A stretch of 64,000 nucleotides of DNA from a candidate division TA06 bacterium B3_TA06 (GTDB lineage: Bacteria > Hydrothermota > Tepidihabitantia > B3-TA06): the NCBI GenBank assembly GCA_005223075.1, contig NJBO01000003.1, positions 81,555 through 145,554 on the forward strand, in the 5' to 3' direction. Position 1 is the stretch's first letter, and the number at the start of each line of letters is the position of its first letter. The notes under the pieces are model-generated. The model saw only the letters and a program-made list of their open reading frames with translations, ran no database searches and was not told the origin of the DNA. Made by a program: the position numbers and the translations under genes. Below are positions 17,326 to 37,600 of this stretch, piece by piece.

Positions 17326-17491
17326 CAATCAACGAACAAAAGGAGTCGTTCTTTGGAAATAAAAAACTGCTTCGCACACAGCGGGTGTTTCAGCAAAGAC
17401 TAACGCAGGCTTTACCGCTTCGAAAAGCCTGAAAACCTTAGCCAAAACTGCTTGATACATTTAAGTATCAAGTATTAAAAAGGAGAGCTAA

Positions 17492-19362: not shown

Positions 19363-19695
19363 TTTTCTCCTCCTTTTGGCGATTTAAGGGTTTCCTCGCG
19401 CAATAAAAGCGAGTCTCTTGCTTGCATCGAATCTGGTTTTAAGCCTGATTCAGTCACAGCAAGCATTACACTTCTCTATGCCCACACTACCCATACTTGT
19501 AAGCGGGGAATCTTTGGACATATTACTGTTTTTCTTTCCTTTGTCAAGTCCATTTGATTAGCTCACTCTATTAATGCCCGAACATCCCTAAATAATATTA
19601 TTTTATTACATTTATCTAAAGGAACCAACTAAATGGAACCATCTGTAGTCTTATTGGCTATCCATTTCTATTTGGAAAATGACCTAAATGTTCAC

Positions 19696-19723
19696 TTGAC
19701 ATATGCAATTTTTTGACTATAAT
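19696..19723 (+). promoter_or_regulatory. candidate sigma-70 promoter for LuxE-like gene copy 2
   Basis: TTGACA-16-TATAAT, as in copy 1. Confidence 0.5.
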
Positions 19724-19889
19724 CAATCAATGAATAAAAAGAGTCGTTCTTTAGAGATGAAGAACTGCTTCGCCCACAGCGGGTGTTTCAGCAAAGACTA
19801 ACGCAGGTGTTGCCGCTTCTAAAAGCCTGAAAACGTTAGCCGAAAACGCTTGATACATTAAAGTATCAAGTATTAAGAAGGAGGAACAA

Positions 19890-21041: not shown

Positions 21042-21049
21042 CCGGCAAG

Positions 21050-22483
21050 ATGAGAGAAACATCAATCCCAGCGTTCTTCCTGCCCGAAGTTGCTGAGGCT
21101 GACCTTGGGGAGTTTACTACGCTTGAGTTCGGGCAAGGCCAGAACACGGTCAGGATGCATTCTCCCCTCCTTACACCTGCTTTGCTCTCCAAGATCATAG
21201 CGCAACTTAAAGAAGCGCGGGAGGAATACCTCGCCAAGCTCCCTGTCTATGAGATCATCGAAACCATAGATAAAGCCGTGGCACTTTGGCGCGATCCAGA
21301 CTACCCACTGCGTCGCAAGGCCGAAGCGCTACTTCCTCTCATCACCGGCTACTCCAGCGAGATGATTACCCAGACCCTGGACGAGATCGTACTCATGTTG
21401 CGGGGAGAAGACCTGAAGCTCCTTCTTGAAGAGGAGTTAGGCGACCCTCTGTTTCTGGATCAATTCAGGCCGCGGCCGAAAAGCACCGGGATGTGCAAGG
21501 TCTACGGGCCTCGTCTCACCACCGCCGTGTTCGCAGGCAACGTTCCAGGACTTCCTGTGGCAAACATCGTCTATGCGCTGCTCATGAAATCGGCGATCTT
21601 AGGCAAGTCATCCTCTGAGGAGCCTTTGTTCGGCGTTCTATTCGCACAAACTCTGGCTGAGATAGATCCTGAGCTGGCTCGCTCTGTTGCCATGGTTTGC
21701 TGGAAAGGCGGCGATGTGGAGATCGAACACCTGGCTTTTGGCTCCTCGGATGCTGTGGTTGTCTATGGCGGAGAGCATTCTGTAAACGAAGTCCGGAAGC
21801 GGGTTCCTTTCCGAACCCGCTTCATCGCCTACGGGCATAAACTCAGCTTCGGGGTCATAGGCCGCGAGCATCTAGCAGCGGACCGCGTCAGGCAGACGGC
21901 GGCCTGGGCAGCCGTAGACGCATCAGTCTTTGATCAGCAGGGGTGCCTGTCTCCTCACGTGTTCTACGTAGAAGAAGGCGGCCAGACCACGCCCAAGGAG
22001 TTTGCGAGGCTGTTGGCTAGCGAGATGGAGGCCTTTAACCAAAAGATCCCTCGCGGGAGGATCTCGCCTGACGAATCGGCACATATCAACCAGCTACGTG
22101 GCTCATACGAGTTCCGGGAGTTTGAAGACCAAGGTGTAGCACTGCATGCGAGCTCACGGGGTACGGACTGGACGGTTATCTACGAACGCGATCCGGCATT
22201 CGTGCCGTCGTGTCTGAATCGAACCATCCGCATCAAGCCGGTGAAAGACGTATCAGAAGTGGTTGGATTGATCGAACCCATAAAGGGCTACCTGCAGACG
22301 GTAGGCGCAGCTCTGCCACAAGAAAGGTTCTTATCCCTGGCGAATAAGATGGGCCAACTAGGGGCAGATCGCATCTGCCCTCTGGGCAAGATGACCGCTC
22401 CTTCCCTCACCTGGCATCACGACGGACGCTTCAACATACTCGATCTGCTCAGATGGACTGATATAGAACAAGGCTCAACATAA
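21050..22483 (+). CDS. LuxC-family acyl-CoA (acyl-protein) reductase, aldehyde-dehydrogenase-like
   Basis: The protein is 477 aa, the size of LuxC. It immediately follows LuxE. It has an NADPH-binding-like region (VFAGNVPGLP) and a conserved Cys (GCLSPH). Confidence 0.7.
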   Translation: MRETSIPAFFLPEVAEADLGEFTTLEFGQGQNTVRMHSPLLTPALLSKIIAQLKEAREEYLAKLPVYEIIETIDKAVALWRDPDYPLRRKAEALLPLITGYSSEMITQTLDEIVLMLRGEDLKLLLEEELGDPLFLDQFRPRPKSTGMCKVYGPRLTTAVFAGNVPGLPVANIVYALLMKSAILGKSSSEEPLFGVLFAQTLAEIDPELARSVAMVCWKGGDVEIEHLAFGSSDAVVVYGGEHSVNEVRKRVPFRTRFIAYGHKLSFGVIGREHLAADRVRQTAAWAAVDASVFDQQGCLSPHVFYVEEGGQTTPKEFARLLASEMEAFNQKIPRGRISPDESAHINQLRGSYEFREFEDQGVALHASSRGTDWTVIYERDPAFVPSCLNRTIRIKPVKDVSEVVGLIEPIKGYLQTVGAALPQERFLSLANKMGQLGADRICPLGKMTAPSLTWHHDGRFNILDLLRWTDIEQGST

Positions 22484-22517
22484 GCTGAGAACAAGAAAAA
22501 ACTGGGGGGCTAAACAC

Positions 22518-22560
22518 GTCCCCACGGGGTTGGAAACAACTCCGTGGGGACTTTGTTTTC
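22518..22560. terminator. rho-independent terminator (10-bp GC stem GTCCCCACGG/CCGTGGGGAC + T-run) between convergent luxC-like and SDR genes
   Basis: A perfect inverted repeat is followed by TTTGTTTTC. An A-run sits on the other side, so it may act in both directions. Confidence 0.6.
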
Positions 22561-22605
22561 TGGTTCACCTCCTTTAGGGTTTAGCTCACAGCTTGGTTGT
22601 TTTCT

Positions 22606-23526
22606 TCATGACGCCAGCCCTGTTAACTCCTCACTGATTTTCCACAGCCGCTGCCAAGCTTCTTGGTTGTAAGAGGCTTTGGACGAACGCTTGGGTTTTC
22701 GCTTGGAGAAATACTTTCCGGTGACGCCCTCCACCTCCGGCGAGGACGCCAGATAGATGCTGGTCAGCGCACCCTCCTCAGGGGGAATCGCCCATAAGAG
22801 GTTAAAACTCACCCACCTGACTATCCTAAGAGCACCCCTAACCTGATGCGCCACGTTGGTCTTCACAAAGCCAGGATTGAGGGCATTTACCGTGACCCCG
22901 GTGCCCGCCAGCCGCCGCGCGAGTTCGTAGCTGAACATGAGCAGGGCAAGCTTGGAGTGGGTATATGCTGGGATACCGAAGAATTTTTCCCTGGTTGGTA
23001 GTTCGTTAAGATTTAACCCCTTAACCCATGCGTGCATGAAGGAGGAAACATTGACTATGCGGGACGGAGCACTGGTCTTGAGGACATCAAGTAACAGGTG
23101 GGTCAACAAAAAAGGAGCGATATGGTTGACGGCAAAGAACATCTCGATACCGTCGGAGCTCTGGGCTCGTTCGGCAAGACCAATGCCAGCGTTGTTTATG
23201 AGCACGTCCAGGCGTTGATAGCGATCCTTAAACTCCTGGGCCAGTCGGCGAATCTGAGCCTGCGAGGAGAGATCGGCAAGCATCAAATCAACCAAATCGT
23301 TTCCGCTCTCCCTCTTGATCTCGAGCCTGGCTGCCTCGCCTCGTTCCTTGCTGCGGCAGGCCATAACTACGGTCGCGCCCATCTTTGCCAATCCCAGAGC
23401 GGTTTCCTTGCCTATACCTGAGTTAGCTCCTGTCACCAGGCAGACCTTGCCTTTCATTTCATTCATCTTAGCCTCCTTGGTCTTTAGACTTATGTCTTTA
23501 AAGTCTGCCATTGAAGTCGTTGACAT
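22606..23526 (-). CDS. short-chain dehydrogenase/reductase (SDR) family oxidoreductase
   Basis: TGANSGIG Rossmann motif, NNAG motif, and the catalytic YxxxK region. Confidence 0.85.
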   Translation of the reverse strand: MSTTSMADFKDISLKTKEAKMNEMKGKVCLVTGANSGIGKETALGLAKMGATVVMACRSKERGEAARLEIKRESGNDLVDLMLADLSSQAQIRRLAQEFKDRYQRLDVLINNAGIGLAERAQSSDGIEMFFAVNHIAPFLLTHLLLDVLKTSAPSRIVNVSSFMHAWVKGLNLNELPTREKFFGIPAYTHSKLALLMFSYELARRLAGTGVTVNALNPGFVKTNVAHQVRGALRIVRWVSFNLLWAIPPEEGALTSIYLASSPEVEGVTGKYFSKRKPKRSSKASYNQEAWQRLWKISEELTGLAS

Positions 23527-23789
23527 CCTATTATTTTTATCATTGACGAATTATAGATTAAATTCCGAACGATGTCAAGTTAATTATAAGTCTATTTTAT
23601 TGAAAGTTACAGGGGGGGACGGTGAATCCTTCAGTATCGTCTTGGTAAGGTCTTTCGCTTCGATCTTGCGCGGGTTGAGGAGTGGCTTGAGTCGCGGGGC
23701 GTGCAACCACAACTCATCCGAACCAACAGCGCCGATCTCGAACGTGATGTTGACAAGATACTTGCCTCAACTACAATTGGAGGTAAGGT

Positions 23790-24362
23790 ATGAGAGTTTA
23801 TCAATGTGGTAAGCGTTGGTATGTCGAGGACTCATACAACCCGAAAAGGTACCGCCGGTCCGCGGGTCGGACTAAGCGGGAGGCTCTTTTAAAACTTGGC
23901 GAGATTGAACGCTACAAAGAAGTCTGGATAGAGAATGTAAAGTCTGCTTCCGTTAACCGTGAGTTGGCGTTACTAAGGCATATGCTCCGTAAGGCAATAG
24001 ATTGGGATTACCTGCGGAAAGAAAATCCTGCAAGCAGGGTGAAACAGTTCAAGGAACCCTCAGGACGGGTAAGATACCTCTCCTTTGAAGAAAGAGAGCA
24101 ATTACTTGAAGCGTGTAAGCGGACTGGTATCGAGGATTTCCATTGTCACAGCCTTAGACACACCTTTGCCTCTTATCGCGTTATGGCGGGTGTAGACATC
24201 CGAACGGTTCAGGTACTGATGGGACACAAGGACATCAAGATGACCATGCGGTATTCGCATCTTTCCAAGAGATACCTCAGAAAGGCGGTAAACCGGATGG
24301 TCACAAATTGGTCACAAGTCGAGGATGCACCCGTCGAGCAATCTCCCAAGTTACGGAGTTAA
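23790..24362 (+). pseudogene. degenerate tyrosine-recombinase (integrase) remnant lacking most of the catalytic core
   Basis: The N-terminus is integrase-like (RRSAGRTKREALLKLGEIE). Box II is present (HSLRHTFAS...LMGHKDIKMTMRYSHL). The protein is only 190 aa, and the Box I Arg region between LSFEERE and HSLRH is missing. Confidence 0.5.
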
Positions 24363-24370
24363 AGAAACTT

Positions 24371-24442
24371 GCCGACGTAGCTCAGCGGTAGAGCAACGCT
24401 TTCGTAAAGCGTAGGCCGGTGGTTCGAATCCACTCGTCGGCT
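24371..24442 (+). tRNA. tRNA-Thr (anticodon CGU)
   Basis: A manual cloverleaf fold gives a 7-bp acceptor stem, D and T arms (GGTTCGAATCC), and anticodon loop TTCGTAA. No CCA is encoded. Confidence 0.9.
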
Positions 24443-24757
24443 TTTTCAATCGTTACCCAGTAGGGCGCAACCCGTTGTAACACAAGCACTTACAAGGGAT
24501 ATAGGTATCCCTTTGGGCGGGTGCAAGGTTTACCCTATCACACCTGAAAAGTAGGCGTTTGGGTGCAAAAATGGCTAAGAACCCCTAAAATAACACACCT
24601 ACTGACACAGCCCAAAAGGTGCTCGGAGAAACACAGCCCAAACACACCGCCGTCAGTTTGGGCCGCTGCCCAGAACTCAAAAGGTTAGTGCAGTAGGTCT
24701 ATATCTTCTCAAGCCGCTCTCTGAATCCGTCTTTCAAATGTACACGGGGCAACCTCG

Positions 24758-24973
24758 TCATTTTACCCGAATGTAAGTGTATCCTTCCTTTTTTATGTTT
24801 TGATCCAAATACTGACCTTTTGAAGGAGCATTCATAAGACCATCATATAAGGCAAGTGGAACACCAAAGTATTGATAGATTCTACCCCCATGAAACTCCA
24901 CCTCTAAGACTTGAGTAGATCGGTTGTACCCTACGGATACAAGATTACTCGATTGAACTGGGATTCTCTTCAT
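24758..24973 (-). CDS. KTSC-domain protein (71 aa)
   Basis: It matches the KTSC consensus (SSNLVSVGYNRSTQVLEVEFHGGRIYQYFGVPLALYDGLMNAPSKGQY). Its RBS overlaps the stop of the upstream ATPase gene. Confidence 0.7.
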   Translation of the reverse strand: MKRIPVQSSNLVSVGYNRSTQVLEVEFHGGRIYQYFGVPLALYDGLMNAPSKGQYLDQNIKKEGYTYIRVK

Positions 24974-24982
24974 CTTGTCACC

Positions 24983-27475
24983 TCAAATTTTCAGATTACC
25001 ACACCGACACTGCTTGAGTTTCGCATTGTTGGGTGAGTATTTTTTGCAAGCTTCTGTATTACAACTTGGACAAACGAAAAGGGCCTTAAATTCATCTATA
25101 TCTCTAAGAACCGTTTCCACATCCCCTCTACTTAAAGTAGTTGATTGCATGTTCCGATGATGTGAACCTAAATTTGTCAGCAGTTGACTTGCTCTTAAAT
25201 CATCAAAAATTGCTTTCCCATCCTTTGAACGCAGAGACTGGTTCTCATTTATGTAACTCCGCAGACCATCTAACAACTCGCTTGCTTCTCTTTGATCATT
25301 CCTAGGGCCTACACGAAATTCAAGGCTTTTCACACCGAGTTTAGAGCATTTGTCTTTCAACAATTCTTCAATTAAAGTTCTACAACGATTCGCAGCCTCA
25401 TGTATATTATTTCTCTCCAATTGCCATTTGATTCTTTCGTCTAATGTAGCTGGTGACTCTATGACCTCAACCCCTCTTTCAATTGACCATTTTTTCAACC
25501 CACGAAAACGCCATTTACCTGTAGGTGACAAGGTTTTCTTCAACTCTTCAAACCAGAGATCATCGTGTGTAAAAAGCAGAATCTGAACATCAGAAAACTC
25601 ATCACGGAGTAACCTTGCCAAAGCAAACCTGTGGTTCGAATCAAAACTGCTAATAACGTCATCGAGTATAATGAAATTGCTTACTTTGTTGAAGTATCTA
25701 ATGAAGGCTAAGAACAAACAGATACCAAGACTATTCATGTGGGATTCGCTTAGAACCTTTCGCGGTGGTGATATTTCCAAGCCGTGAAACAGAAGCTTGA
25801 ACTCGACACCCCTAAGTTCTGTTTGAATAAGCTGTATTTGATCTATTTTTTCGTCCAAATGAAGACGAGCAAAAAATTTTTCAACGTCGGAAGATATCAC
25901 CGAGATCACGGCGTTAAGCCCTTCCTTTTCTCGATTTTCAAAATCTCGTAGTACATGCCACATTGATGATATTTGTTCCCTGAATTTCTCAATCTTTTGA
26001 TTCAACCTTTGGATCTTTATAAAATTATCGCGCAATGAGTCAAGCCTGGCGACATTCCTGTAAAAAATCTTTTCTTCCTCGGTATCAGATAGTTCATCCT
26101 TGAGCGCTGCTAACTTCCCTCGTGTCTTTTGAATAGCTTCACTTAAGACTCTTAGACTTTCATCATTCGGCACTCCTACTTCAGTTGGTTCAATAACCTT
26201 CTGCATATTGATTGTCAAATCGTTCCACGCATTAAGGCGGTTCAGCCAGTTAATTATCTGATTCAATTCGTCGGGCAAGGTAAGGAGCTTCTTGTTTTCT
26301 TCGCTCTCGAATTCCTGGATTCCATCCATAGATGAAGTTATACTTACCCTCAATTGTTTCACGCTATCAATAAGTTCCTTTTTCTCTTTTAACAATGCTT
26401 CGAGCCTAATTACTTCTTCTTCCACAGTTTTTTGGAGTTGCAACGTATCAAATTTACTCTTACATAGAGGGCACTTGTTTGGTGCACCCCACCCTTTACT
26501 CAAAATCTGTTGGGCCTTGGCATAAAGACCTTCCCATGCCGAAGCAGCCAACAATTCCGGTTTCGCAACAAGTTTGTTGTGTTTGCCGGCGATGGTCTTT
26601 AACTGATTACAAATTTCTTCGGGTGTGCGTATTTTCTCAATGGCCCTCTGTAAAACCTCAACCGCAAGGCGCTTTTTACCTTTGTCGGTTCTCAATGTTT
26701 GTTCATCTAGGGTGTTGGCTACTGCAATTAGAGACTCAAAATCCGTTATTGGTTGAGGATGCTTTAGTTCTGCTCTTATTTGTTCAGTCGAACTGTCTGT
26801 CAAAGTCAGTCCCCTTAATTCGAGATGCTTTAGTTCTGCTCTTATTTGTTCAGCATAACTGATAATATCCTGAATTTCAAAAGTGTCGCGACCAATAATC
26901 CGACCGATTTCTTCTTTGCTATTCTGCAACCTAGCTTCATTTTGGATTAGTTCCTTGTCATCTTTCAACGCATTGTATACCTTCAGCAGAATCTCTCTCA
27001 TCTCCGTTACAACCCTAAACCCTACAATTTCCTCTATATCTTCAAGCTTTTCACTTTTTGTCTTGTCAACGAATCTTCCTATCGTAGAATGTCTTAAAAT
27101 GAATGATTCTTTCGCGACCTCCTCTATAAACTTATTAAATTCCTCAGATTGATTCGAAGAATAATACCCCCCTTTCCTTTTCAACGTCTTAACGGAGCTT
27201 AAGTTCACATCATCAAATTCAAGCGTAACAGTTGCATCTTGACTATCGGGCAAAGCCTTATTGAAGTAATCCTCTCTACCGCAACCTTCCTTTCTAAGGT
27301 CTTCTATTTCGTCAGTAAAGAACCATTCAATCGCATCTGTAAAGCTACTTTTACCATCACCATTGTTGCCGTATAAAACGAGATTTGGTGCATTATTGGG
27401 GAATTCAAGCACAACAGGCTTTAGAATGCCTCTGAAACCCTCTATGGTTAATCTCTTTAGACTAACTTTATCCAT
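24983..27475 (-). CDS. Rad50/SbcC-like ABC ATPase with coiled-coil zinc hook (CPLC) and C-terminal ~200-aa extension ending in a Cys4 Zn-ribbon; candidate RloC/PrrC-like anticodon nuclease
   Basis: Walker A is GNNGDGKSS. The middle is a long coiled coil containing CPLCKSKF. Near the C-terminus are Walker B/D-loop (FIILDDVISSFD) and an H-loop (LLFTHDD). The extension has an R-x3-E motif (RTLIEEL), SHH, and CPSC...CRCG. It sits next to a restriction-modification gene. Confidence 0.55.
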   Translation of the reverse strand: MDKVSLKRLTIEGFRGILKPVVLEFPNNAPNLVLYGNNGDGKSSFTDAIEWFFTDEIEDLRKEGCGREDYFNKALPDSQDATVTLEFDDVNLSSVKTLKRKGGYYSSNQSEEFNKFIEEVAKESFILRHSTIGRFVDKTKSEKLEDIEEIVGFRVVTEMREILLKVYNALKDDKELIQNEARLQNSKEEIGRIIGRDTFEIQDIISYAEQIRAELKHLELRGLTLTDSSTEQIRAELKHPQPITDFESLIAVANTLDEQTLRTDKGKKRLAVEVLQRAIEKIRTPEEICNQLKTIAGKHNKLVAKPELLAASAWEGLYAKAQQILSKGWGAPNKCPLCKSKFDTLQLQKTVEEEVIRLEALLKEKKELIDSVKQLRVSITSSMDGIQEFESEENKKLLTLPDELNQIINWLNRLNAWNDLTINMQKVIEPTEVGVPNDESLRVLSEAIQKTRGKLAALKDELSDTEEEKIFYRNVARLDSLRDNFIKIQRLNQKIEKFREQISSMWHVLRDFENREKEGLNAVISVISSDVEKFFARLHLDEKIDQIQLIQTELRGVEFKLLFHGLEISPPRKVLSESHMNSLGICLFLAFIRYFNKVSNFIILDDVISSFDSNHRFALARLLRDEFSDVQILLFTHDDLWFEELKKTLSPTGKWRFRGLKKWSIERGVEVIESPATLDERIKWQLERNNIHEAANRCRTLIEELLKDKCSKLGVKSLEFRVGPRNDQREASELLDGLRSYINENQSLRSKDGKAIFDDLRASQLLTNLGSHHRNMQSTTLSRGDVETVLRDIDEFKALFVCPSCNTEACKKYSPNNAKLKQCRCGNLKI

Positions 27476-27713
27476 TGCCTGCCTCTCTCAATTCCTTCAA
27501 CCCATTAAGAATCTCTTCTTTGGTAAATCTACTGCTATAAAAAAGGGAACGTAAAAGACCCATAACATCGGCATCGATCCGCAAAATGTCAAGTTCTTTA
27601 AAGAACTCCGCAACTAATTCCTTGCCTGTTTTTATGTCGGAAGCCTTCTCTCGCTCTTGTTCGCCCATTCCTATTTTCGGCTGTTCTTTTGTCTCGCCTG
27701 AAGATTCGGTCAT
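27468..27713 (-). CDS. hypothetical small protein (81 aa) between RM gene and ATPase gene
   Basis: A plausible RBS precedes the ORF. It overlaps the start of the downstream ATPase by 8 bp. No recognisable motif was found. Confidence 0.4.
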   Translation of the reverse strand: MTESSGETKEQPKIGMGEQEREKASDIKTGKELVAEFFKELDILRIDADVMGLLRSLFYSSRFTKEEILNGLKELREAGNG

Positions 27714-27921
27714 TTAATATCCTCTTTTTTGCCGATCTGCCAACCTCATAAGGAAATACTATACACTTAGACTATCCTTTTGTCAAGCCCCTTTGCCTAA
27801 AATTGCGACTTTAAGAAATTGCCTCTCTGAGATTTCAGAGCAGGATTAGGGCAAGGAATTGGTGCAAAAGTGGTGCAATTTTGGTGCAGGGGCTTAGGGT
27901 GAAATTATGGTGGGCGATAGT

Positions 27922-30900
27922 CTATCCCTTGCAGGGATTTCCCTTTCCTTCAACGATCTCGATTTCCTCAGGGGTTAAGGCATAAAGCTTGTAGACAAGG
28001 CGGTCAATCTCGCGGTCAGTTTCGGCGATCTCAGTTACGACCGGCGTGAGTTTGTTTTTGTATTTATCAAAACCTTTTGAGAGGAGCTCGTAGTTCCTGG
28101 GTTCGCGGGTGTTGAAGGCAAGCTTGCGGTTCTTTGCGATAAGGTCGGCAAGGGCGTTGGCATCGTCAAGCTTCTCAAGGCCGCGGATGCGCTCCCTGCC
28201 CGAAAGCTCAGCGAGCTTTGCCCCTATAAGGTGCTCCAGCCAGCCGGAGTATTCTTTAACTATCTCCTGCTTGCGCTTGTGCAGGTCAAGCATAGCTTGT
28301 ACAAGCTCAACCATATCGTTGTGCATCTTCTTGTCTTCGGGCTTGGAGAAGTCGATTGTGCGGATGGGCATAGACTCTACTTCGTTTGTTCCCACGTTGT
28401 TATTCGTACTTGTGATCTTAAATCTCCACTGGAACAACTTTGAATTTAACAAACCCATTAAATAATAAAGATCGTACTCCGTCCTAACATTCAAAGTAAT
28501 GGAATTTGTAGAATCCGCAAAATAGGTCGGTGGCTTTATAATCATTGCAACGATTCGCCATTTTTCATCAACTCCCGTTATTCTTTGAGTTGCTATACGA
28601 CGCTTGAATACTTCTTCAGGAATAGAATTTCCATCCTCCAAAAATTTCTTCTCATCGAACCATTCCCTTTCACCTTGACTTAACACATCTTGGAAATAGT
28701 ATCTCCCAATTTCCACTCCTTTCAATAATCTAGACATACTGGAATCACTGGTAATGAACTTGCTATATATTGTTTGATTGATTTCTCCTCTTCTTACATC
28801 AAAAGTATCTTCTTCTGCTAATCTTACAATACCTTCGGTTAGGTACATTTTCCGACAAACCTCCCAGTTACTCTGGTCAACTAAAGGAATAGGAATATTA
28901 TTTGGATCGAGCAATACCAAATCATCAAATTTGATTAAAGCCTCACGACATTCATCTTCAAAGCTGTTTCCAGGAAACACCCGGATATGAATTTGAGTCA
29001 TTTTGGGTGATTGAGGTTCGTTCATACAAGTAACAATCGTTGTGGACAGTTTTGCATCCTTAAAAATTCTCCGTTTAGAATTATCTTTTTGCGGGAAACA
29101 ATCTGCTAATAATTCGCAGGTTGAAAGCATCAAATTACGTCGCGCTTTTGAGCAACTTATATCTGCAACCAAAGATAAAGGCACAATCATACCAAATCGA
29201 TCCCCTCGTTGTAAAAGCCCTAATGCTCTTACAATAAATAATCGGTACAGATTAAGCTTACCACCTAGCGCTGCCTCGTACAGAGGGATATTCTTTACAT
29301 AATCACCCAATTCTTTATGGGGGCTAGAGATTCCTTTCCTTTCCTTCTCAAGAACGTCATACGGCGGATTCCCTATCACCGCGTCGAAGCCGGGATTGGC
29401 AAGCGGCCTGCCGTGCTTATCGAAAAACACTTCTGGAAACTCAAGCTCCCAGTGGAAAAAGTGATGCTTGTTCCAGAGCTTAGTTGCTTTATCCACCCAC
29501 TTTTCGCGCTCCAGCGCGGCAAATGCCTTTTTATCGTCTTGCCTCAGCGCTTCCACAAGCCGCGAGTAGTCCTTCGGCTTGACCTCGTTCCCGAAGTAGG
29601 TGGAGACCCAGACGTCGGCGGCCTGGCGAAAAGGTTTCATCATCCCCCGCGCCTGCTTGAGCCGCTTTATCTTGTCATCTATCTGGTCAATGGTATCCGA
29701 AGGCTCGTCCTCAATTTGCTTATAATAGACTATCGTGCGTGCCGAGTAGTGTTCAACTATCTGCTGAAACAGCGAGCCGGTTTTCTCGCCCGGCAGGTTG
29801 CCAAGCTCTGCAACCTTTGCGCCGATAAGCGAATCTCCAGGACGCAGGTGATGGTCAAGGAAGGAAAGCGGCTTGTTCGCGGCCACGGTTGAAAGCCACA
29901 AGGAAAGCTTGGCAAGCTCCACAGCAAGCGGGTTCTTATCCACCCCGAAGATGCAGCGCTCTATAATCAAACGCTTTGCCTTGCCGATCTCGTCCTCCGT
30001 TTCCTCAATCTCCTTAACTCCCAGAAGCTTGGGGGCAAGGAAATCGGTTGCCTCAACCAGAAAGTGTCCCGAACCCATTGCCGGGTCGAGCACACGGAGC
30101 GAAAGGAGTTCCTTCTCTTTAATGTCCTTGGTCAGCGGTTCAAGGGTGTGCTCGACAATGTATTTCACGATGTAGTCCGGCGTGTAGTAAGAGCCTGTGG
30201 CCTTGCGGTCGCCCCGCTCTGTCACGGGGTAGTATTCCCCTTTCCCTACGCTGTCCGTAGTTTTGCTTATCTCCTCTTCTTTGCGTTCCCGCAAGGGCTT
30301 CCATTGCTCTTTCTTTCCCTTTTTTACCGCGACCATCGGCTCAGAGGCAACCTCAAGATGATTTTCTAAAAGCCCCTCGTATATGCTCCCAAGGTCCCTG
30401 ATTTTCAAGCTCGAATAGTCAATGAACTCCTTTTTTGGCGTAGTCTTTGTCTGGGGTCTGGATAAAAGGTCAATAACCTCGGCAAGCCAGCGGTCGCCTA
30501 TTTTGTACTTCTTGAGGAACTCGTGCTGATTGTCATCGAAGAGACCACCGTTATAAGGGGCAATACCCAGGTCTTTTTCCCCCTGGTCTATAAGTGTTGA
30601 AAGGGCAGATAGTTTGCCCCACAGCATAGGTATGCTGCCGCCGTAAGGCGGCCCGTCCTTCCTTGCGTATATCTCCTCCTTCATACTCTCCAGGCTGTAG
30701 TGTTGAAGGTAGCTTCTGTTAGAGATTGGCAGGAGCAACTTATCTTCGGCGTAGAGTATAAACAAGAGACGGTAGAGAAGAACAAAGCAGTTTTCGCGTA
30801 TAAGCTCCTTGTCGCGCACAGGCTCCAAGCGGTTTTCTTTAAACTCCACGAATCCCTGAGCGAGTATTCGAAGCGCCTTGTAAACGTTGTCCTTAAGCTC

Positions 30901-31647
30901 CGCGCCGACGGCTTCAGCGTAACGGACTGAGCCGTCAAGCACGTAGTCGAGAAATCGCGGGAATGCTTGACAGCGAAAGAACATGTAGAAATACTTAAAG
31001 GCTTCAAGTTGTTCATCACGGCTTACGCCTGCTGCAAAGAGGGGCCCGTCGGAGTTTATTAGGCTTACAAGATTAACCTCGTAGTAGCGGTCAAGGTGTT
31101 TGCTTTGTTCCCGCTCATACAAACGCCAGATTCGCCCGTTAGTGAGTATGCCCCAACGTACCTCGCTATAGAGAAGATACAGGTGCATTTGGTAGGCAGG
31201 GTTGCGGTACTCGAAATCAAACAGGTCGGGCTCGTAACGCGATGAAAGGTCTAATTTGCGATTCCAATGCTTGGCTTCGCAAAGACCTATTGCTTTGTTG
31301 AAAAGCTCCCATTCCTTGCCCTTTTCCGTAGAGGCTTTCTTTTTTGCAGATTCCGTGTCGAATAACGCATAATCGGGCCTTCTGATGCCTTCGGCGGTTT
31401 TCTCTCGCGGTTGAACAATGTAATGGTGACCGAGTATTTCGAGTATGGGCCTGATGAAGTCGTTTTCCAGTTGAGGTTCGCTTAAAGCGGGGAGTCTCGT
31501 TAAATTCTCCTTATAGAGCTTGGAGATACCTTCAAAGGCTTCTTCAATCCCTTCGTGATCCCGCCATTCTCTTTCTTCTGGTAGTATTTCTTCAAGGTAG
31601 TGGTTTGAGAAGAGGTCTTGATTGGTGTGTAAAGAATTGGTACCCAT
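27922..31647 (-). CDS. type IIG/IIL restriction-modification enzyme (fused PD-(D/E)xK nuclease + N6-adenine methyltransferase + target-recognition domain)
   Basis: The N-terminus has a PD...E-x-K motif (RRPDYALFD...GLCEAKHW). MTase motif I is VLDPAMGSGHFL and motif IV is GNPPYD. A C-terminal region of about 450 aa is the likely target-recognition domain. Confidence 0.8.
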   Translation of the reverse strand: MGTNSLHTNQDLFSNHYLEEILPEEREWRDHEGIEEAFEGISKLYKENLTRLPALSEPQLENDFIRPILEILGHHYIVQPREKTAEGIRRPDYALFDTESAKKKASTEKGKEWELFNKAIGLCEAKHWNRKLDLSSRYEPDLFDFEYRNPAYQMHLYLLYSEVRWGILTNGRIWRLYEREQSKHLDRYYEVNLVSLINSDGPLFAAGVSRDEQLEAFKYFYMFFRCQAFPRFLDYVLDGSVRYAEAVGAELKDNVYKALRILAQGFVEFKENRLEPVRDKELIRENCFVLLYRLLFILYAEDKLLLPISNRSYLQHYSLESMKEEIYARKDGPPYGGSIPMLWGKLSALSTLIDQGEKDLGIAPYNGGLFDDNQHEFLKKYKIGDRWLAEVIDLLSRPQTKTTPKKEFIDYSSLKIRDLGSIYEGLLENHLEVASEPMVAVKKGKKEQWKPLRERKEEEISKTTDSVGKGEYYPVTERGDRKATGSYYTPDYIVKYIVEHTLEPLTKDIKEKELLSLRVLDPAMGSGHFLVEATDFLAPKLLGVKEIEETEDEIGKAKRLIIERCIFGVDKNPLAVELAKLSLWLSTVAANKPLSFLDHHLRPGDSLIGAKVAELGNLPGEKTGSLFQQIVEHYSARTIVYYKQIEDEPSDTIDQIDDKIKRLKQARGMMKPFRQAADVWVSTYFGNEVKPKDYSRLVEALRQDDKKAFAALEREKWVDKATKLWNKHHFFHWELEFPEVFFDKHGRPLANPGFDAVIGNPPYDVLEKERKGISSPHKELGDYVKNIPLYEAALGGKLNLYRLFIVRALGLLQRGDRFGMIVPLSLVADISCSKARRNLMLSTCELLADCFPQKDNSKRRIFKDAKLSTTIVTCMNEPQSPKMTQIHIRVFPGNSFEDECREALIKFDDLVLLDPNNIPIPLVDQSNWEVCRKMYLTEGIVRLAEEDTFDVRRGEINQTIYSKFITSDSSMSRLLKGVEIGRYYFQDVLSQGEREWFDEKKFLEDGNSIPEEVFKRRIATQRITGVDEKWRIVAMIIKPPTYFADSTNSITLNVRTEYDLYYLMGLLNSKLFQWRFKITSTNNNVGTNEVESMPIRTIDFSKPEDKKMHNDMVELVQAMLDLHKRKQEIVKEYSGWLEHLIGAKLAELSGRERIRGLEKLDDANALADLIAKNRKLAFNTREPRNYELLSKGFDKYKNKLTPVVTEIAETDREIDRLVYKLYALTPEEIEIVEGKGNPCKG

Positions 31648-32246
31648 GTCTACCCCCAGTATATCTAACTATAAGAGTACGTCAAGCATATTCCCCTTCA
31701 CCCCGCAGCAGTGTAGCACTAACCAGCAGGCGCGAGGCAGGGCTGCTTGTCTAAAAAGCGTTCCAAGGCTCAGGCGAAAACCGACTTTAAGAAGATAGAG
31801 GACGAAGTTAAGAAAACAGAAGAGGAGCAAGCTAGACTTGTCAAAATACGCAAAGAACAAGACAAGGAAGCCTGCCAAGACTTTATTATTTGAGATGATT
31901 AGATTTAGGGAAATAAAAATGCCCATAAATAACTGCCAGGGGAAGGAATTATTAAGTTGCGCAATTGCGCCACTTAGTAAACGCAAGCGTATTTATTGGT
32001 TTATTGGAAAAAATGGGGGAAATGGTGGATAAATCTATAATTAAGGAATAAATACAGCAAACTCAAGGCGACACTACGTCTATTGCTATCCCGTATTGAT
32101 GATTCCCTTCCCGCTCTATAGCCTTTCTTTCCTTCCGCACTTCCGAGCCTGCTGATTGCGATTACTTCGTGGCATACGGTTTTAATGAAGAAGAATTAAA
32201 AAACGCTCAAACTTGATAAATACATCATAGACACCATGCGTGGAGC

Positions 32247-33578
32247 TTGCGTGGAAGGGGGCTTGACACGAAGGAAATAGGGACTATTCTTATATCAACA
32301 ATGGGAATTCAAATGAATAAAAGACAAATTTTTTTCATCATCGCGATAGCCGTTGGCATATTGTTGCTGATTCTCCTTGCGAAGAAAATGGGAACGGTTA
32401 CGGATCAGCCTGTACTGCGAAGGAAATCGAGACACAAAAGGACACGTGAGGAAAGAGAGATAGGGCGATTAAACGTTAAGTCCCTTGACATCCGGGCAGG
32501 TGCGGATAGAATACCCGTAGACGTGGGCATCTACCGTAGGGAAAACGGGATGCTCTACGTGCGTGTAATGATTGACGGAAAGCTTATCCGCCGGTCTCTG
32601 GAGACTCGAAAAGAGTCTGAGGCTCTATTGAAAATCCGGAGTGTAATTATGGCTGCCTTGGAAGGTCAAAAAGCAAAGGAAGTCCCGACGCTTGCAGAGT
32701 TCACTAAGACCTATCTAGCCTACAGTAAACGCCAGTACTCAAAAAGCACCTATGCAAGGAACCTTTGCAGGATGTCGAAGCTCATAGAGAACTTTGGCTC
32801 TATGAGGCTTGACCAGATAGACAAGCGGGCGATTAAACTCCACTCTCAGAAACGTCTGCAGGAAGTGTCCCCAGCATCGGTGAACTGTGAACGGTCGTTG
32901 CTAAGCTCCATAATGGAGTATGCCTGTGAGCTTGACTTCATTCAAGAGAATCCTGTCAGGAAAGTAAAGAAGCTTAGGGAATCCCCAGGCCGAGAACGCT
33001 ATCTGACCCCAGACGAAATCAAACGGCTCCTTGACGCCTGCAAGGCGCTAAGCGAACGGAAAGGCGTTGGACACAACCCAATCCTGTATGAGATTGTCTT
33101 AACCGCTATCCTCACCGGCTTACGTAAAGGTAATCTACAGAACCTGAAGTGGAGTCAAGTGGATTTTAAGACAGGGAATATCATTATCCCCGCCGGTGAA
33201 CACAAAAACCGCAAGCCGCTCTACTTCCCGATTAACCCCTACTTGCAGGAGATATTGTCAGGACTAAGGCATAACTACCCTTACGCTGAATACGTCTTCT
33301 GCAAGGCTGACGGCACTGAATATGGAGATTGGAAAAGGAGCTTTAACACCGCGTGCGAAACAGCCGGTTTAGAGGACGTTCGCTTCCACGACTTAAGGCA
33401 TACATGTGGAACCCTTCTGAACATGCTGGGTACGAACCAATATACTATCCGTGCGCTTATGGGACACCGCACATTAGCTGCGTCCAAGCGATACGTCCAC
33501 ACCCCGCCTGAAACAGTCAGAGAAGCGTCTAACGCTTTAGGAGACCGCCTGAGACGTATCCTAGACGGCAGCGACTAA
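32247..33578 (+). CDS. int: tyrosine-type site-specific integrase
   Basis: Catalytic motifs HDLRHTCGT, LMGHRTLAASKRYVH. The annotated N-terminus has a hydrophobic segment, so the true start may be an internal Met around 32388. Confidence 0.85.
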   Translation: MRGRGLDTKEIGTILISTMGIQMNKRQIFFIIAIAVGILLLILLAKKMGTVTDQPVLRRKSRHKRTREEREIGRLNVKSLDIRAGADRIPVDVGIYRRENGMLYVRVMIDGKLIRRSLETRKESEALLKIRSVIMAALEGQKAKEVPTLAEFTKTYLAYSKRQYSKSTYARNLCRMSKLIENFGSMRLDQIDKRAIKLHSQKRLQEVSPASVNCERSLLSSIMEYACELDFIQENPVRKVKKLRESPGRERYLTPDEIKRLLDACKALSERKGVGHNPILYEIVLTAILTGLRKGNLQNLKWSQVDFKTGNIIIPAGEHKNRKPLYFPINPYLQEILSGLRHNYPYAEYVFCKADGTEYGDWKRSFNTACETAGLEDVRFHDLRHTCGTLLNMLGTNQYTIRALMGHRTLAASKRYVHTPPETVREASNALGDRLRRILDGSD

Positions 33579-33649
33579 CACACCTATTGACACAGCCCCG
33601 ATTTGGGCAGATGTAAGTTAAGGAATTAGGTGGCTTTGCATTCCGGTAA

Positions 33650-33696
33650 TCGCTTTCGTAAAGCGTAGGCCGGTGGTTCGAATCCACTCGTCGGCT
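33650..33696 (+). repeat. partial tRNA-Thr 3' half (attR-type direct repeat)
   Basis: Over 47 nt it matches tRNA positions 26-72 exactly (acgctttcgtaaagcgtaggccggtggttcgaatccactcgtcggct). The upstream sequence does not match the tRNA 5' half. Confidence 0.75.
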
Positions 33697-33858
33697 TACA
33701 GCCGGGCCACAAGGCCCGGTTCACCTTTATTGGTGAACGGGAGTTACTTGACAATAAAGCCCAACCGCTCTATACTGCCAAACCGAAGAGCAAACCTTTT
33801 GGGTCGCTTGTAGCGTCGAATAACGGTACAGATTCTAACAATTGAGGAGGAGAAAAGA

Positions 33859-34575
33859 ATGTATACCTTGATATTTCTCTTTATCGTGGGAGCAACCCCA
33901 CATCAAGCCGTGGATGCGGACAGAGACGGCTTCCCTGACGCGGCAGAGCTTAAAACATCAGCCGACCGCCACAACTTCCGCCGATGGTTTGTAACCATAG
34001 CGCTATCAAGACACCTTAACCCGCGAGATGACATCAGAGACTGCGCGGGCCTTGTTCTGTATTCATACAGGGAGGCACTCAAGTCCCATGACGAGGATTG
34101 GCGCGCGCAGTTCGGCGAGCTCTTAGACCCCTCGATCCCGGAGATCGCGGCGTTTCACTACCCGAAGGTTCCCTACATCTGGACAGAGATCTTTCGCCTG
34201 GCCGACGGTCCGTATGAGCCGGGCGACCGCGAGAGGGGCAAGCTGGGCAACTTTGCCGACGTTCCGCATCTTATGAATTACCATACGGTAAAGCTCACGA
34301 GAAGGTTAGACGATGGTGTGCTGGCAGGGGATTTGTTGTTCTTCACGCCAAAAGACAAGTCCTCGCACGTGATGATCTACCTACAGATCAAGGGTGAACC
34401 CCACTTGCTTTACCACACCGGGCCAGGGGATTATGAGTATTCTGGTGAAGAGAAGGCGGGGGAGATGAGATTGGTTAAGTTTGAGACGCTTATGTCACTT
34501 GACGAGGGGACCTGGCGGCCGGATGAGGCGAATCCAGCCTTTGCCGGGTTCTACATGTTCAAGATACTGGACTGA
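33859..34575 (+). CDS. DUF1175-family secreted protein (YfaT-like, alpha-2-macroglobulin operon partner)
   Basis: Signal peptide present. The size and its position upstream of the A2M gene match the yfaT/yfaS arrangement. Confidence 0.6.
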   Translation: MYTLIFLFIVGATPHQAVDADRDGFPDAAELKTSADRHNFRRWFVTIALSRHLNPRDDIRDCAGLVLYSYREALKSHDEDWRAQFGELLDPSIPEIAAFHYPKVPYIWTEIFRLADGPYEPGDRERGKLGNFADVPHLMNYHTVKLTRRLDDGVLAGDLLFFTPKDKSSHVMIYLQIKGEPHLLYHTGPGDYEYSGEEKAGEMRLVKFETLMSLDEGTWRPDEANPAFAGFYMFKILD

Positions 34576-34698
34576 CTGAACGTCTCTCGGAGGCTCCAGT
34601 CTCCGAGAGGCTTCAGAAGACGAGGGCCGAAGGCCCGAGTCTTAACTAAGATTGGATAATTTGAAAAGATATTGCCACTGCCCAGAAAGGAGGGTATC

Positions 34699-37600
34699 GT
34701 GAAAGTTCTTGCTTTGCTTGCCACCTTAACGGGAGGGCTTTTTGCCCACCCCTACATTCACCTCTCAACCTCCCGGATATACTCACCCGGGGAGGAAACA
34801 GAGATCCGACTGGAAACCAGAGACTTGGACGTAATCCACTTCCGATTGTACGCAATCGAGGACCCGATAGATTTCTTCGAAGCTCAGAAGAACATGCGCT
34901 CGCCCAGGGTGCGGGGCAAGGCCAAGCCTGTCAACTTCTTCCACATGCTGGAAGGCCTTGGCGATAGAACCAAGCGCAACACCCGCTATCTTGCCCGCGA
35001 GATGATGAGTAAGGAAAGCCGCATAGGGTTAAGGGATTATCTCGGTCTTCCACCGCTCGAGAAGAAGGAGGCCGAAACACCCGAACGCTTCGGGCCATCG
35101 AGTATCCCAAGGCTTGAGGGATACGAGGTGCTTCGGGAGTGGTCTATGGGGTTCGAGAAAAAGAAGAAGGATAAGGACGACTATTACTACTACGGTCGCT
35201 ATCATTACGAGACCATAGACCTTGAGATCACCAAGCCTGGCGTCTACCTTGTTGAGGCCTACTACGGGACGCGCGTTGCCTACACCCCTGTGGTAGTTTC
35301 AGAGATGTCTGTGGTAACCAAGCAAGACCCTCGGGAGGTATACGTCTTCGCAGTGAACGCAGAAGACGGCAAGCCTCGCCGAGGGGCAGTGGTGGTGGTG
35401 CTTTCGGACACCAACCGGATAGCCACCGGCCGCACCGACGGCAAGGGACTCTTCCATACCTCCTTCGACACCACCCGGTTAAGGGTGCTGGTCCAGGACG
35501 GCGATAACTTCGCGCTCCTGGATAAGTACTACTACTATTCCGATGAGAAGGATCAGGACGGGGCAATAAAGGTCTATCTGCACACCGAACGACCCATCTA
35601 CCGGCCTGAGCAGACCGTCTACTTCAAGGGAGTAGTCCGGCGGATGCGCCGCGGCACCTACCGTACCCCTGCAGGCGATGAGGTCGAGGTGGTGGTGACA
35701 GATCCAGAGGGCAACGAGATCTACCGACACACCCTCGCCAGTGACTCCTGGGGTGCGTTTGCGGACTCGTTGATAGTGCCCTCATCATCACGTCTGGGAA
35801 GATATACGTTAAGCGCCACCCTGGAGGAAACTTACCACTCGGTTCAGTTCCGGGTGGAGGAGTACCGCAAGCCCTCCTACAAGGTGGAGGTTGAGCTAGA
35901 CGCCGAGCAGTACGTGCAGGGCGATACGGTAAAGATCGAGGTGGCGGCCGACTACTTCTTCGGCGCTCCGGTTGCCAAGGCGGAGACCAAGCTGAAGATA
36001 TACCGACGCGAGCACCATCGCTACTACTGGTACGGCACCTCCTACATGGACGAGCTTGCCGGCAAGACCGACTCGCAGGGCCGCATCACCTTCACCTACG
36101 TCACACCCAAGAAGGACCGCAACTACCGCTACACCTTCGAGGCGCAGGTGCGGGACGAATCCCGTCGTGCTGAATCCGGTGAGGCCTCGGCGTTCGTGGC
36201 CTCCTCCGCGGTGCTGGTTGACCTGAAACCCACCCGCTACGTGGTGGAGCCTGGCGAGAAGCTTGAGATCGACATTCACACCCACGATATCCTCAATAAA
36301 CCTGTTCCCGGCACGGTCGAGATAGTAGTTTACCGGCATTACTGGGACAAGGAGGACAAGGTCCTCGCCCGCAGAACCATGTCCGTGGGCAAGATAGGAT
36401 TCACCACCTTCACCTTCACCCCCAGCCAAGCAGGCCCCTACTATGTTATAGCGAAGGCCAAGGACAAGCAAGGCAACCAGAGCGAGGAGAAACGCTGGTT
36501 CTACTCCTCCGAGCGCGGCGGCTACTACACCTGGAAAACCGACAGAATCCAGATCATCTTCGATGCAGAAACCTACGAGGTGGGTGACTGGGCCGAGGCG
36601 CTGGTGATAACCCCTTACGAGAACGCCAGCATAATCGCATCACTTGAGGCGGACAATCTGTACGACGTTGACATAATCGAACTTGAGGGGAACACCGCGA
36701 TGCTGCGCTTCAAGGTTCGCTCCGAGTTCGTGCCTAACGTGTTCCTTTCGGTGTGCGGGATTTATGAAGGGGAGTTCTTCGAACACAAGGAGAAGATGCT
36801 CGTGAACCGCAAAGCAAGGATGCTCACGGTGGAGCTTGTCCCTGAGAGACAGCGCTACGAGCCGGGCGAGCGGGCCAAGTTGAACGTGCTGGTCAAGGAC
36901 GTCCGTGGCAAACCCATCAAGGCGGATATCTCTCTTGCCGTGGTGGACGAGGCGCTCTACTCGCTTGCCGCAGAGATCGCACCATCAATCGAGGACTACT
37001 TCTACGGCGAGCGTGCCGATCAGGTTGCCACCTCTTCCTCTGTATACTACTCATTCTACGGCTACGAGCGGCAATATCAGATGCTTTCTGCCGCGGCAGC
37101 GGACAGCGTGGTGCTTGCCGCCTACAAGGGACGCGAAGAACCGAAGGTGCGCAAGAAGTTCAAGGACGTGGCATACTGGAACGCGTTTGTGAGAACAGAC
37201 GGCTCTGGCCGCGCACAGGTTGAGTTAATCTGGCCAGATAACCTAACCACCTGGCGAGCCACTGCACGCGCAATCAGCATGGACACCAAGGTTGGCGAGT
37301 CGCGAGAAAAGATCTTGGTGACCAAGGACCTTCTGGTTCGCATCATCCCGCCCAGGTTCGTAACCGAGCGAGACAGCCTTCTCATACCCACCATCGTCCA
37401 CAACTACACGCGCACATCCCAGGAGGTCAAGCTCTCCTTCTCGGTCAAAGGGTTAAAACTTTTCGACAACACCGCCCATACTGACACCATCCAGCCAGGC
37501 AGCACCTTCCGTGTGGACTGGCCGGTAAGATGCGAGGTGCCGGGTGACGTCACCCTTACCGCCAAGGCCATCGGCAGCAGTGCCTCCGACGCGATGGAGC

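Follow-up and report, generated by a model that had tools for sequence, protein, structure and literature searches.

The 64,000-nucleotide stretch of contig NJBO01000003.1 from candidate division TA06 bacterium B3_TA06 that was analysed here (the window) contains, at 24397-33697, what is very probably a small integrative genomic island, set into a tRNA-Thr(CGU) gene. The explanation that best accounts for the data as a whole, and in which we have high confidence, is an integrase-inserted island with a two-layer defence cargo that includes an RloC-like ATPase beside a predicted type IIG restriction-modification (RM) enzyme. The original prediction, made from the sequence of the window, had proposed a tRNA-targeting integrative element with five genes between its repeats: a KTSC-domain gene, a Rad50-like ATPase, an 81-aa open reading frame (ORF), a type IIG RM gene and a tyrosine integrase. 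All five were found between the repeats, and the proposal is upheld by an exact repeat, an empty site in a related genome (L001), an intact integrase and sister elements in other tRNA genes. The accompanying statement that the cargo is all defence-related is slightly too strong, because KTSC has no established defence role.

The only tRNA that ARAGORN calls in the window is a tRNA-Thr(CGT), whose 5' part is host-derived and whose 3' 46 nt fall within a direct repeat, the two copies of which form the cores of the left and right attachment sites (attL and attR). The copies, at 24397-24443 and 33651-33697 with a spacing of 9254 nt, match at 47/47 nt (repeat finder, confirmed by script), and this is the sole long exact direct repeat returned for the window; the recurrence of an exact 47-mer in 64 kb has a chance expectation of ~1e-19 (N^2/2/4^47). 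The repeat begins in the 5' strand of the anticodon stem and extends one base beyond the discriminator; its identity ends on the left with A (24396) vs T (33650) and on the right with T (24444) vs A (33698). It had been described as exact, and it remained so on realignment, so the inexact half-copy that had been named as grounds for giving up the reading was not seen; its placement at 24396-24442 and 33650-33696 was one base too far left, because 24396 is A and 33650 is T, while 24443 and 33697 are both T and lie inside the identity.

The sequence before the distal copy had also been said to lack similarity to the tRNA 5' half, which is essentially right: there is no D arm, and ARAGORN calls nothing there. 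A search that allowed up to 3 mismatches gave no second copy of the 5' half. The Rfam tRNA model does just pass at 33607-33696 (31.7 bits, gathering score 29), with GCAGAUG pairing with the 3' acceptor strand and the D arm skipped via a 33-nt insert; this tRNA-like score could be chance or the relic of a tRNA-like attP (the attachment site of the circular element). The regions equivalent to attR in the sister elements L015, L017, L019 and L020 fall below the Rfam tRNA threshold, and the Rfam scan of the island arms returned no RNA family besides the score at attR. A conserved arm motif of the sister elements, GCAGACGTA, is similar to the tRNA-Thr 5' end, GCCGACGTA.

The composition of the interior sets it apart from its surroundings. 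As had been noted, it is AT-richer than the flanks (GC 0.446 in the island vs 0.524 in the left and 0.556 in the right flank), and GC at third codon positions (GC3) is 0.33-0.55 in the island genes vs 0.62-0.75 in neighbouring host genes, so that both measures differ from the host. The genes of the flanks are ordinary chromosomal ones, with LuxE/LuxC-like and short-chain dehydrogenase genes on the left and DUF1175, alpha-2-macroglobulin and transpeptidase genes on the right.

A scan with the right-flank DUF1175 protein, with one genome per species, returned 1 locus, L001 (Ca. Stahlbacteria metagenome-assembled genome SOJW01000020.1), the sole close relative recovered; an exact-sequence look-up of the same protein gave no record. 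L001 has the same flanks and the same tRNA (Table 1) and none of the 9.25 kb between them: its tRNA-Thr(CGT), at 9767-9838, runs straight into TACAGCCGGGCAACAAGGCCCGG, the hairpin sequence that lies 3' of the distal repeat in the window. Ancestral synteny, in which relatives would carry the same genes at this locus without repeats, had been named as the outcome that would overturn the reading, and L001 does not show it. Because recombination between the repeats would remove 9254 bp, the L001 site is exactly the chromosomal attachment site (attB) expected. The predicted attB junction reads from the tRNA into ACAGCCGGGCC, and the predicted attP junction reads ...CATTCCGGTAAT, the 47-nt core and TTTCAATCGTTACCC...

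The tyrosine integrase that adjoins the distal repeat is full length, as had been proposed. Its Pfam Phage_integrase match covers model positions 2-168 of 172, nearly the whole model, and the catalytic residues R275, H363-x-x-R366, H389 and Y398 (425-aa numbering) are present; the catalytic Lys was not located in it. The protein is 100% identical to NCBI protein CEE36_03265. Its predicted N-terminus (window 32313-32390) would be a hydrophobic, transmembrane-like segment, KRQIFFIIAIAVGILLLILLAKK, that also occurs in the relatives P0061 and P0063 and is followed directly by an internal ATG; an unrelated N-terminal extension of 150-190 aa stands in its place in the relatives P0066, P0068 and P0069.

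Both ends of the island carry non-coding arms that are conserved in sister elements. The block at 24588-24646 in the attL arm is 92-97% identical to L017, L020 and L009 and contains two copies of ACACAGCCCAAA (24605 and 24631), and a third copy, as ACACAGCCC, lies at 33590-33598 in the integrase-proximal arm. Across the window, the 9-mer ACACAGCCC is present at these 3 places in the arms and nowhere else; the chance expectation is 0.34, and 0/100 shuffles reached 3. From their sequence and placement in both arms, the ACACAGCCC/ACACAGCCCAAA repeats are probably arm-type integrase sites and are our candidates for these. The integrase gene is preceded by a conserved module of ~590 nt in which a pattern scan marks promoter-like sites for the RM gene and the integrase gene, which are divergent. 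A 105-aa ORF in this region (31669-31986, - strand) was rejected as a gene, because it starts with TTG, has a hydrophobic translation of low complexity, matches no family and lacks an NCBI annotation.

Close relatives of the integrase, 81-89% identical, lie in WOR-3/TA06-type metagenomic contigs, where they belong to sister islands. In L017, L018 and L019 a tRNA-Arg(TCT) and an attL-like arm precede three unrelated genes as cargo; the integrase comes next, and after it 49 nt of the tRNA-Arg 3' part are repeated. The core of L020 is likewise of tRNA-Arg, in a different host flank, and its cargo consists of a type I RM system, an Mrr-like gene and four hypothetical genes. On L015 and L016 the integrase is followed by a fragment with the anticodon loop TTTGTAA (tRNA-Thr(UGU) type) and then by an intact tRNA-Tyr. 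When five attR sides were aligned, the integrase-proximal arm was near-invariant up to ...CCGGTAA and then gave way to element-specific tRNA sequence, the switch starting 2-4 nt before the anticodon loop. L009 has another island of the window's type, which carries the same cargo (90% nucleotide identity over 24647-27855) plus an extra PDDEXK_3 gene and in which the RM specificity region has diverged.

The sister elements are as small as the window island, and their cargo is swapped. That of L017 (1981-8606; also in L018 and L019) comprises genes of 459, 1201 and 530 aa, the first two without a Pfam match and the third with CarboxypepD_reg and Por secretion-tail domains; because of cargo of this type, not all genes carried by the island family are obviously defensive. 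TA06/WOR-3-type bacteria contain, in sum, an island family that has the integrase module and the two arms in common, with exchange of the tRNA core (Thr-CGU, Thr-UGU or Arg-UCU) and of the cargo.

Islands whose tyrosine integrases insert them at the anticodon-loop sublocation of tRNA genes are a known class. The window island resembles them in its repeat from the anticodon stem to the tRNA 3' end, an integrase at one end, foreign composition, an empty attB and defence cargo. It differs from them in having only five genes and no recognisable excisionase, in that its integrase adjoins the displaced tRNA fragment instead of the intact gene, and in that sister integrases 81-89% identical to its own are found with cores for three different tRNAs.

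Table 1. Coordinates of the island, its genes and sites, and the matching regions of L001
Feature	Position in window	Strand	Evidence and remarks
Intact target tRNA-Thr(CGU)	24371..24442	+	ARAGORN; Rfam tRNA model 71.8 bits; 100% identical to L001 tRNA
attL core, 47-nt identity block	24397..24443	+	exact direct repeat; sister elements' blocks begin at same tRNA position
Non-coding element arm at attL (P' arm)	24444..24757	+	conserved start TTTTTCAATCGT...AACCCGTTG; conserved block 24588-24646
KTSC-domain protein, 71 aa, last gene of ATPase operon	24758..24973	-	Pfam KTSC E 1.9e-24; starts 9 nt after ATPase stop
RloC-like ABC/Rad50-type ATPase, 830 aa	24983..27475	-	Pfam SMC_N, AAA_23; PADLOC LmuB 1e-27
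In-frame 66-nt tandem duplication (22 aa, TDSSTEQIRAELKH...) in ATPase coiled coil, residues ~217-238	26758..26861	-	
Small conserved partner protein, 81 aa	27468..27713	-	overlaps ATPase gene start by 8 nt
Promoter-like site TTGACA-17-TATAGT 5' of operon	27758..27786	-	11/12 consensus positions; pattern match only
Predicted single-chain type IIG RM enzyme, 1241 aa	27922..31647	-	Pfam Eco57I, N6_Mtase, TaqI_C; PADLOC REase_MTase_IIG 3e-70
Conserved non-coding region 5' of integrase gene, part of shared integrase module	31710..32300	+	87-88% identical to L017, L015, L019
Tyrosine integrase, 425 aa from ATG	32301..33578 (open frame from 32247)	+	Pfam Phage_integrase 1e-25, Int_N
Element arm at attR (P arm)	33579..33650	+	conserved in sister elements up to ...CCGGTAA; 23-nt repeat; five-element alignment
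attR core, displaced original tRNA 3' part	33651..33697	+	exact repeat; continuous with host flank in L001
Terminator-like hairpin, 3' of tRNA before insertion	33700..33721	+	9 pairs, 7 G-C; directly 3' of tRNA in L001
Internally deleted second tyrosine integrase, 190 aa, outside island	23790..24362	+	partial Pfam Phage_integrase and Int_N
BLASTN left flank	20603-23755		L001 6574-9715; 85% identity
BLASTN tRNA	24369-24443		L001 9765-9839; 100% identity
BLASTN right flank	33651-44422		L001 9793-20580; 92% identity

The ATPase, 100% identical to CEE36_03250 of candidate division TA06 bacterium B3_TA06, had been called Rad50-like, and it does have a Rad50-type head and a hook. The description is too narrow, since the protein is also a candidate RloC-like HEPN nuclease and is translationally coupled to the 81-aa ORF. 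Its ABC motifs are a Walker A (GNNGDGKS, 36-43), a signature (LSESH, 575), a Walker B/D-loop (IILDD, 601-606) and an H-loop (THD, 636), and they are interrupted by a helical insert of ~385 residues (154-538) with a C335-P-L-C338 hook at its apex. In an AlphaFold2 (AF2) model (mean predicted local distance difference test score (pLDDT) 82.5) the hook lies in a non-helical apex, 327-343, between long helices, and the PDB folds matched by the model are headed by Rad50 and include SMC heads and Lamassu LmuB. The CPxC motif of the hook (C335, C338) is invariant in two alignments, of 20 and of 59 homologues. The model has one low-confidence part, residues 221-238 (pLDDT <50). The 22-residue duplication in the coiled coil (Table 1) is specific to this genome, being absent from all 19 aligned homologues, one of them 83% identical.

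The C-terminal part of the ATPase holds a HEPN domain (~678-798) that was recognised as such by a test of its fold. It contains E703-x3-K707, which fits the HEPN motif Ex3[KR] (PMC3710099), and the triad R729-x3-E733-x38-S771-H772, of which R729, E733 and H772 do not vary among the 20 aligned sequences; among the 59 sequences the H is invariant and the R and E are at least 90% conserved. A zinc ribbon, CxxC...CxC (C802, C805, C823, C825), ends the protein. RloC, a Rad50-like anticodon nuclease that excises the wobble nucleotide and is regulated by a zinc hook, has been defined (Davidov & Kaufmann 2008) by ABC motifs, a coiled-coil insert bearing a CXXC zinc hook and a C-proximal Arg-X3-Glu-X36-52-His, often with Ser before the His, and in Geobacillus RloC each residue of the triad R692/E696/H737 is essential by mutagenesis (PMC2610378). 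The window protein shares with RloC its size (~800 aa), the ABC motifs, the hooked insert, the C-terminal HEPN-type domain with Arg-X3-Glu-X38-(Ser)His and an occasional to frequent linkage to RM loci. It differs in lying below the Pfam AAA_13 threshold, in belonging to a family with an obligatory, translationally coupled partner of 54-93 aa and a CxxC...CxC zinc ribbon, and in that this family occurs in type III/IIG RM loci much more often than RloC, for which RM linkage was reported in 8/72 cases (PMC2610378).

Full-length homologues of the ATPase (~807 aa, 43-47% identity) come from Dehalococcoidia, Bathyarchaeota, Omnitrophica and others. A profile of the C-terminal domain collected 746 cluster representatives at 50% identity, and nearly all full-length ones have 760-825 aa with the domain at the C-terminus. 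Matches to Pfam AAA_13, which we take to be the family holding PrrC and RloC, were obtained for 21 of the 59 family members (E<=1e-3, best E 1.7e-14), with P0052 and P0053 passing the cutoff; judged by these scores, the ATPase family lies at the fringe of AAA_13. The PDB sequence search with the ATPase returned only SMC/Rad50 heads, the IMG/VR scan a single relative, and NCBIfam no informative family for the ATPase, the 81-aa protein or KTSC.

With PrrC, an anticodon nuclease encoded in the type Ic RM locus EcoprrI, the ATPase shares the fusion of an ABC ATPase to a HEPN RNase, a position in or beside RM genes and the logic of a second-line defence. PrrC differs in its ~400 aa, in having no coiled-coil/zinc-hook insert and in being always linked to type Ic systems. 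Membership in PrrC was rejected for the 830-aa window protein, which has a ~385-residue helical insert and a type IIG neighbour instead of hsd genes. Lamassu is likewise similar in several respects: a Rad50/SMC-like coiled-coil ATPase (LmuB gives the top PADLOC matches), a small accessory protein alongside, and predicted DNA-end sensing followed by abortive infection. The island differs in having no separate LmuA, because the HEPN effector is fused to the ATPase, and a small partner in which no LmuC similarity was detected. Membership in Lamassu was rejected too: the LmuB models match (1e-27), but the island has no LmuA-like gene, and PADLOC is blank for the 71-aa and 81-aa proteins.

The partner of the ATPase is conserved with it. 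In every context examined the ATPase homologue is directly preceded by a small ORF, which usually overlaps the ATPase start, and homologues of the 81-aa protein (54-93 aa) occupy this place in 42 loci, 33 of them non-redundant. A hidden Markov model (HMM) of the small protein, run on 80 further metagenomic loci, found it adjoining the ATPase wherever the latter scored above ~490 bits on the family profile. The protein has no family match in Pfam, PADLOC or NCBIfam. In a distant ATPase subclade (25-30% identity) an ORF of 150-160 aa stands directly upstream of the small gene, making a three-gene operon, in 12 loci (for example L034 6338-6802, L044 2135-2596 and L036 1024-1473); all three of those tested weakly match GIY_YIG_2 (E 3e-4 to 2e-3). 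Only the window and L009 have KTSC with the module; elsewhere it is followed by ORF6N-domain or other genes. In L002 (10818-11060) and L005 (10696-11250), two otherwise unrelated contexts, an ORF6N-domain gene takes the position of KTSC, 270-400 nt downstream of the ATPase. A literature search for KTSC gave incidental mentions only.

Genes of RM systems are frequent neighbours of the module formed by the ATPase and its partner. The commonest Pfam families among 101 neighbouring ORFs are N6_N4_Mtase, Phage_integrase, ResIII, Eco57I, Methylase_S and N6_Mtase. The module lies between the type III mod and res genes in L010, L022 and L023, and directly after mod-res in L034; in the window, L009, L005 and L050 it adjoins a type IIG or type I-like enzyme. 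The module is RM-linked in 8 of the ~13 contexts with enough flanking sequence. This embedding resembles that of PrrC and some RloC genes, and embedding in RM loci has been put to use in discovering ABC-ATPase defences (bioRxiv 10.1101/2024.01.29.577857). A link from the ATPase to the RM enzyme through the small protein can be put forward only tentatively.

Several points weigh against the combined account of a mobile island with an RloC-like second defence layer. On the side of the island, one empty-site relative only is at hand, and gain in the lineage and loss by precise excision both fit it; and excisionase, relaxase and transfer genes were not found among the island ORFs. On the side of the cargo, the window ATPase itself stays below the Pfam AAA_13 cutoff (16.1 bits vs 36), so that we call it RloC-like by architecture and motifs and not as a demonstrated family member. 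The PADLOC PrrC model matches it over only 65 residues of the ABC C-lobe (E 2e-5), and its RloC likeness was judged by the published definition. The arginine of the canonical HEPN Rx4-6H motif varies: position -5 holds T, A, G or R, and N768 at -4 is invariant, so that catalysis would have to be ascribed from the RloC-type triad only. The module loci L002, L006 and L081 have no nearby RM gene, and the roles assigned to the small protein and KTSC are guesses.

These points bear most on the function of the ATPase, which we predict, on balance and with modest confidence, to be a HEPN RNase-based abortive-infection protein. The 830-aa protein might instead be a DNA-end sensor of the Lamassu LmuB or Rad50/SbcC kind, with a non-catalytic HEPN-like domain and with killing by the RM enzyme, KTSC or a GIY-YIG-like protein, an alternative that we consider unlikely and still worth weighing. 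The top PADLOC matches of the protein are to LmuB (1e-27) and LmuB is among its fold matches, the unconserved canonical HEPN arginine would suit a non-catalytic domain, and the weakly GIY-YIG-like ORF before the small gene in the 12 loci of the distant subclade could supply an effector. What speaks for the nuclease is that the island has no LmuA-type effector gene, that R-x3-E...SH is conserved in both alignments at the exact spacing found to be catalytic in RloC by mutagenesis (PMC2610378), and that the C-terminal domain occurs almost solely at the end of ~760-825 aa proteins of this architecture.

For the island itself, the alternative is that the 9.25 kb is ancestral at the locus and that L001 lost it by deletion between the repeats. 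We consider this improbable. With only one comparison genome recovered, the site in L001 is indeed exactly what homologous recombination across the 47-nt repeat, or excision by the integrase, would leave. Yet the repeats are themselves the product of site-specific integration, GC and GC3 are strongly unlike those of the host genes, the same integrase/arm module sits with different cargo at tRNA-Arg and tRNA-Thr(UGU) sites of other genomes, and precise excision in L001 would still imply a mobile island. It is very improbable that the element is a degraded prophage, a phage satellite or an integrative conjugative/mobilisable element: all these types typically use tRNA-targeting tyrosine integrases, and a second integrase remnant does lie beside the tRNA, but five genes account for the 9.25 kb and none is structural, replicative, a relaxase or of type IV secretion (Pfam and PADLOC returned no replication or phage structural genes among the island ORFs), IMG/VR scans gave no relative of the integrase and one of the ATPase, and the sister elements are equally small with swapped cargo.

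The integrated island would carry, as its first layer, the 1241-aa protein that we read, by its sequence, as a stand-alone type IIG RM enzyme. It combines a nuclease motif (PD92...E124-x-K126), a gamma-class N6-adenine methyltransferase (motif I VLDPAMGSGHF at 525, motif IV NPPY at 760) and a TaqI_C-like specificity domain at 1011-1094. Its N-terminal 530 residues match the PADLOC type IIG model (3e-70), and its top PADLOC match, DrmMI (1e-104), is confined to the methyltransferase core (residues 473-822). We prefer the stand-alone reading because of this confinement and because the island has no other DISARM or BREX genes. That the protein is instead DISARM DrmMI or BREX PglX is most unlikely, and this identity was rejected for want of partner genes: DrmMI is the strongest PADLOC match (PglX matches are weaker), but it spares the N-terminal region with its type IIG similarity and PD...ExK motif, and DrmA helicase, DrmB (DUF1998), DrmC and BREX genes are all absent from the five island genes.

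The layout of the enzyme is that of the type IIG/IIL class (Eco57I, MmeI, DrdV), in which one chain runs from a PD-ExK nuclease at the N-terminus through a gamma-class N6A methyltransferase with NPPY to a TaqI_C-like specificity domain at the C-terminus. The island enzyme differs in being only marginally similar to solved examples: the PDB sequence search gave one marginal match, DrdV (7lo5, E 1e-4). Its specificity region also differs from that of the otherwise 90-95% identical L009 copy. Between the two genes (window 27933-29460 and L009 1-1603), one stretch is 95% identical, a part near the 3' end is 75% identical, and the sequence between them is unalignable, a pattern as expected if the target-recognition domain had been exchanged.

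A second tyrosine integrase lies immediately 5' of the tRNA, outside the island, and had been left out of the earlier account of the locus. Alignment shows that ~100 internal residues of its catalytic domain are lost; its gene ends 9 nt before the tRNA-Thr 5' end, and the ~610 nt that hold it are absent from L001. It is 47-62% identical to a full-length integrase of L017 (132-1382), vs 33-42% to the island's own, and this L017 integrase abuts or overlaps the tRNA-Arg 5' end, which suggests a second integrase lineage with a place 5' of these same tRNA genes. Because the tRNA 5' half has no second copy, no left boundary can be drawn for an older element. Farther to the left, window 13181-15034, which holds a gene for a 378-aa leucine-rich-repeat protein (13429-14565), is absent from the syntenic region of L001, and there are low-GC patches at 16500-18000 and 19000-20000.

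What the analysis demonstrates is the insertion with its boundaries, the intact recombinase, the kinship of the sister islands, and the domains and conserved residues of the cargo proteins. In our account a circular element carried an attP made up of the integrase-proximal arm, the 47-nt copy of the tRNA-Thr(CGU) 3' part and the second arm, and its own tyrosine integrase recombined it into the chromosomal tRNA-Thr gene, with strand exchange probably in the anticodon-loop region and with the ACACAGCCC repeats of the arms probably acting as arm-type sites. At attL the tRNA copy of the element now makes up the 3' part of the functional gene, and the original 3' part with its terminator has been displaced 9254 bp downstream, to attR. 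From its sequence and context, the type IIG enzyme may then cut unmodified incoming DNA. By analogy with RloC and PrrC, the Rad50-type head and zinc-hook coiled coil of the ATPase may sense DNA damage or failed restriction and unleash the C-terminal HEPN RNase on tRNA or other RNA, a second line of defence in which translation would be shut down. The small protein, with its translational coupling to the ATPase, would most likely restrain the ATPase or couple it to the RM enzyme.

A more specific picture goes beyond this and is, in our judgement, rather doubtful. It holds that the small protein and the ~800-aa Rad50-hook/HEPN/zinc-ribbon ATPase form a distinct two-gene "restriction guard" that physically monitors type III/IIG RM systems, with the small protein as tether or inhibitor and with tRNA cleavage when restriction is blocked; that KTSC, a domain named after the C-terminal domain of lysyl-tRNA synthetase, acts as a tRNA-binding accessory; and, separately, that the islands are retargeted by a swap of the 47-49-nt core with nearly the same integrase.

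The locus is a well-bounded case of horizontal defence-gene transfer in a candidate phylum without cultured members, with an empty site for comparison, and it defines a small family of islands that keep the integrase and the two arms constant and exchange their tRNA core and cargo. This kind of island is already well known; the RloC-like module is divergent and uncharacterised, and its function is a prediction. The parts that merit follow-up are this module with its conserved partner and the core-swapping of the island family. The ATPase belongs to a moderately sized ATPase-HEPN family with an obligatory small partner, often placed between type III mod and res genes or beside type IIG enzymes. 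If its proposed function is true, the PrrC/RloC paradigm of a second line of defence would be widened from type I to type III and type IIG systems, and the small protein would be a testable regulator.

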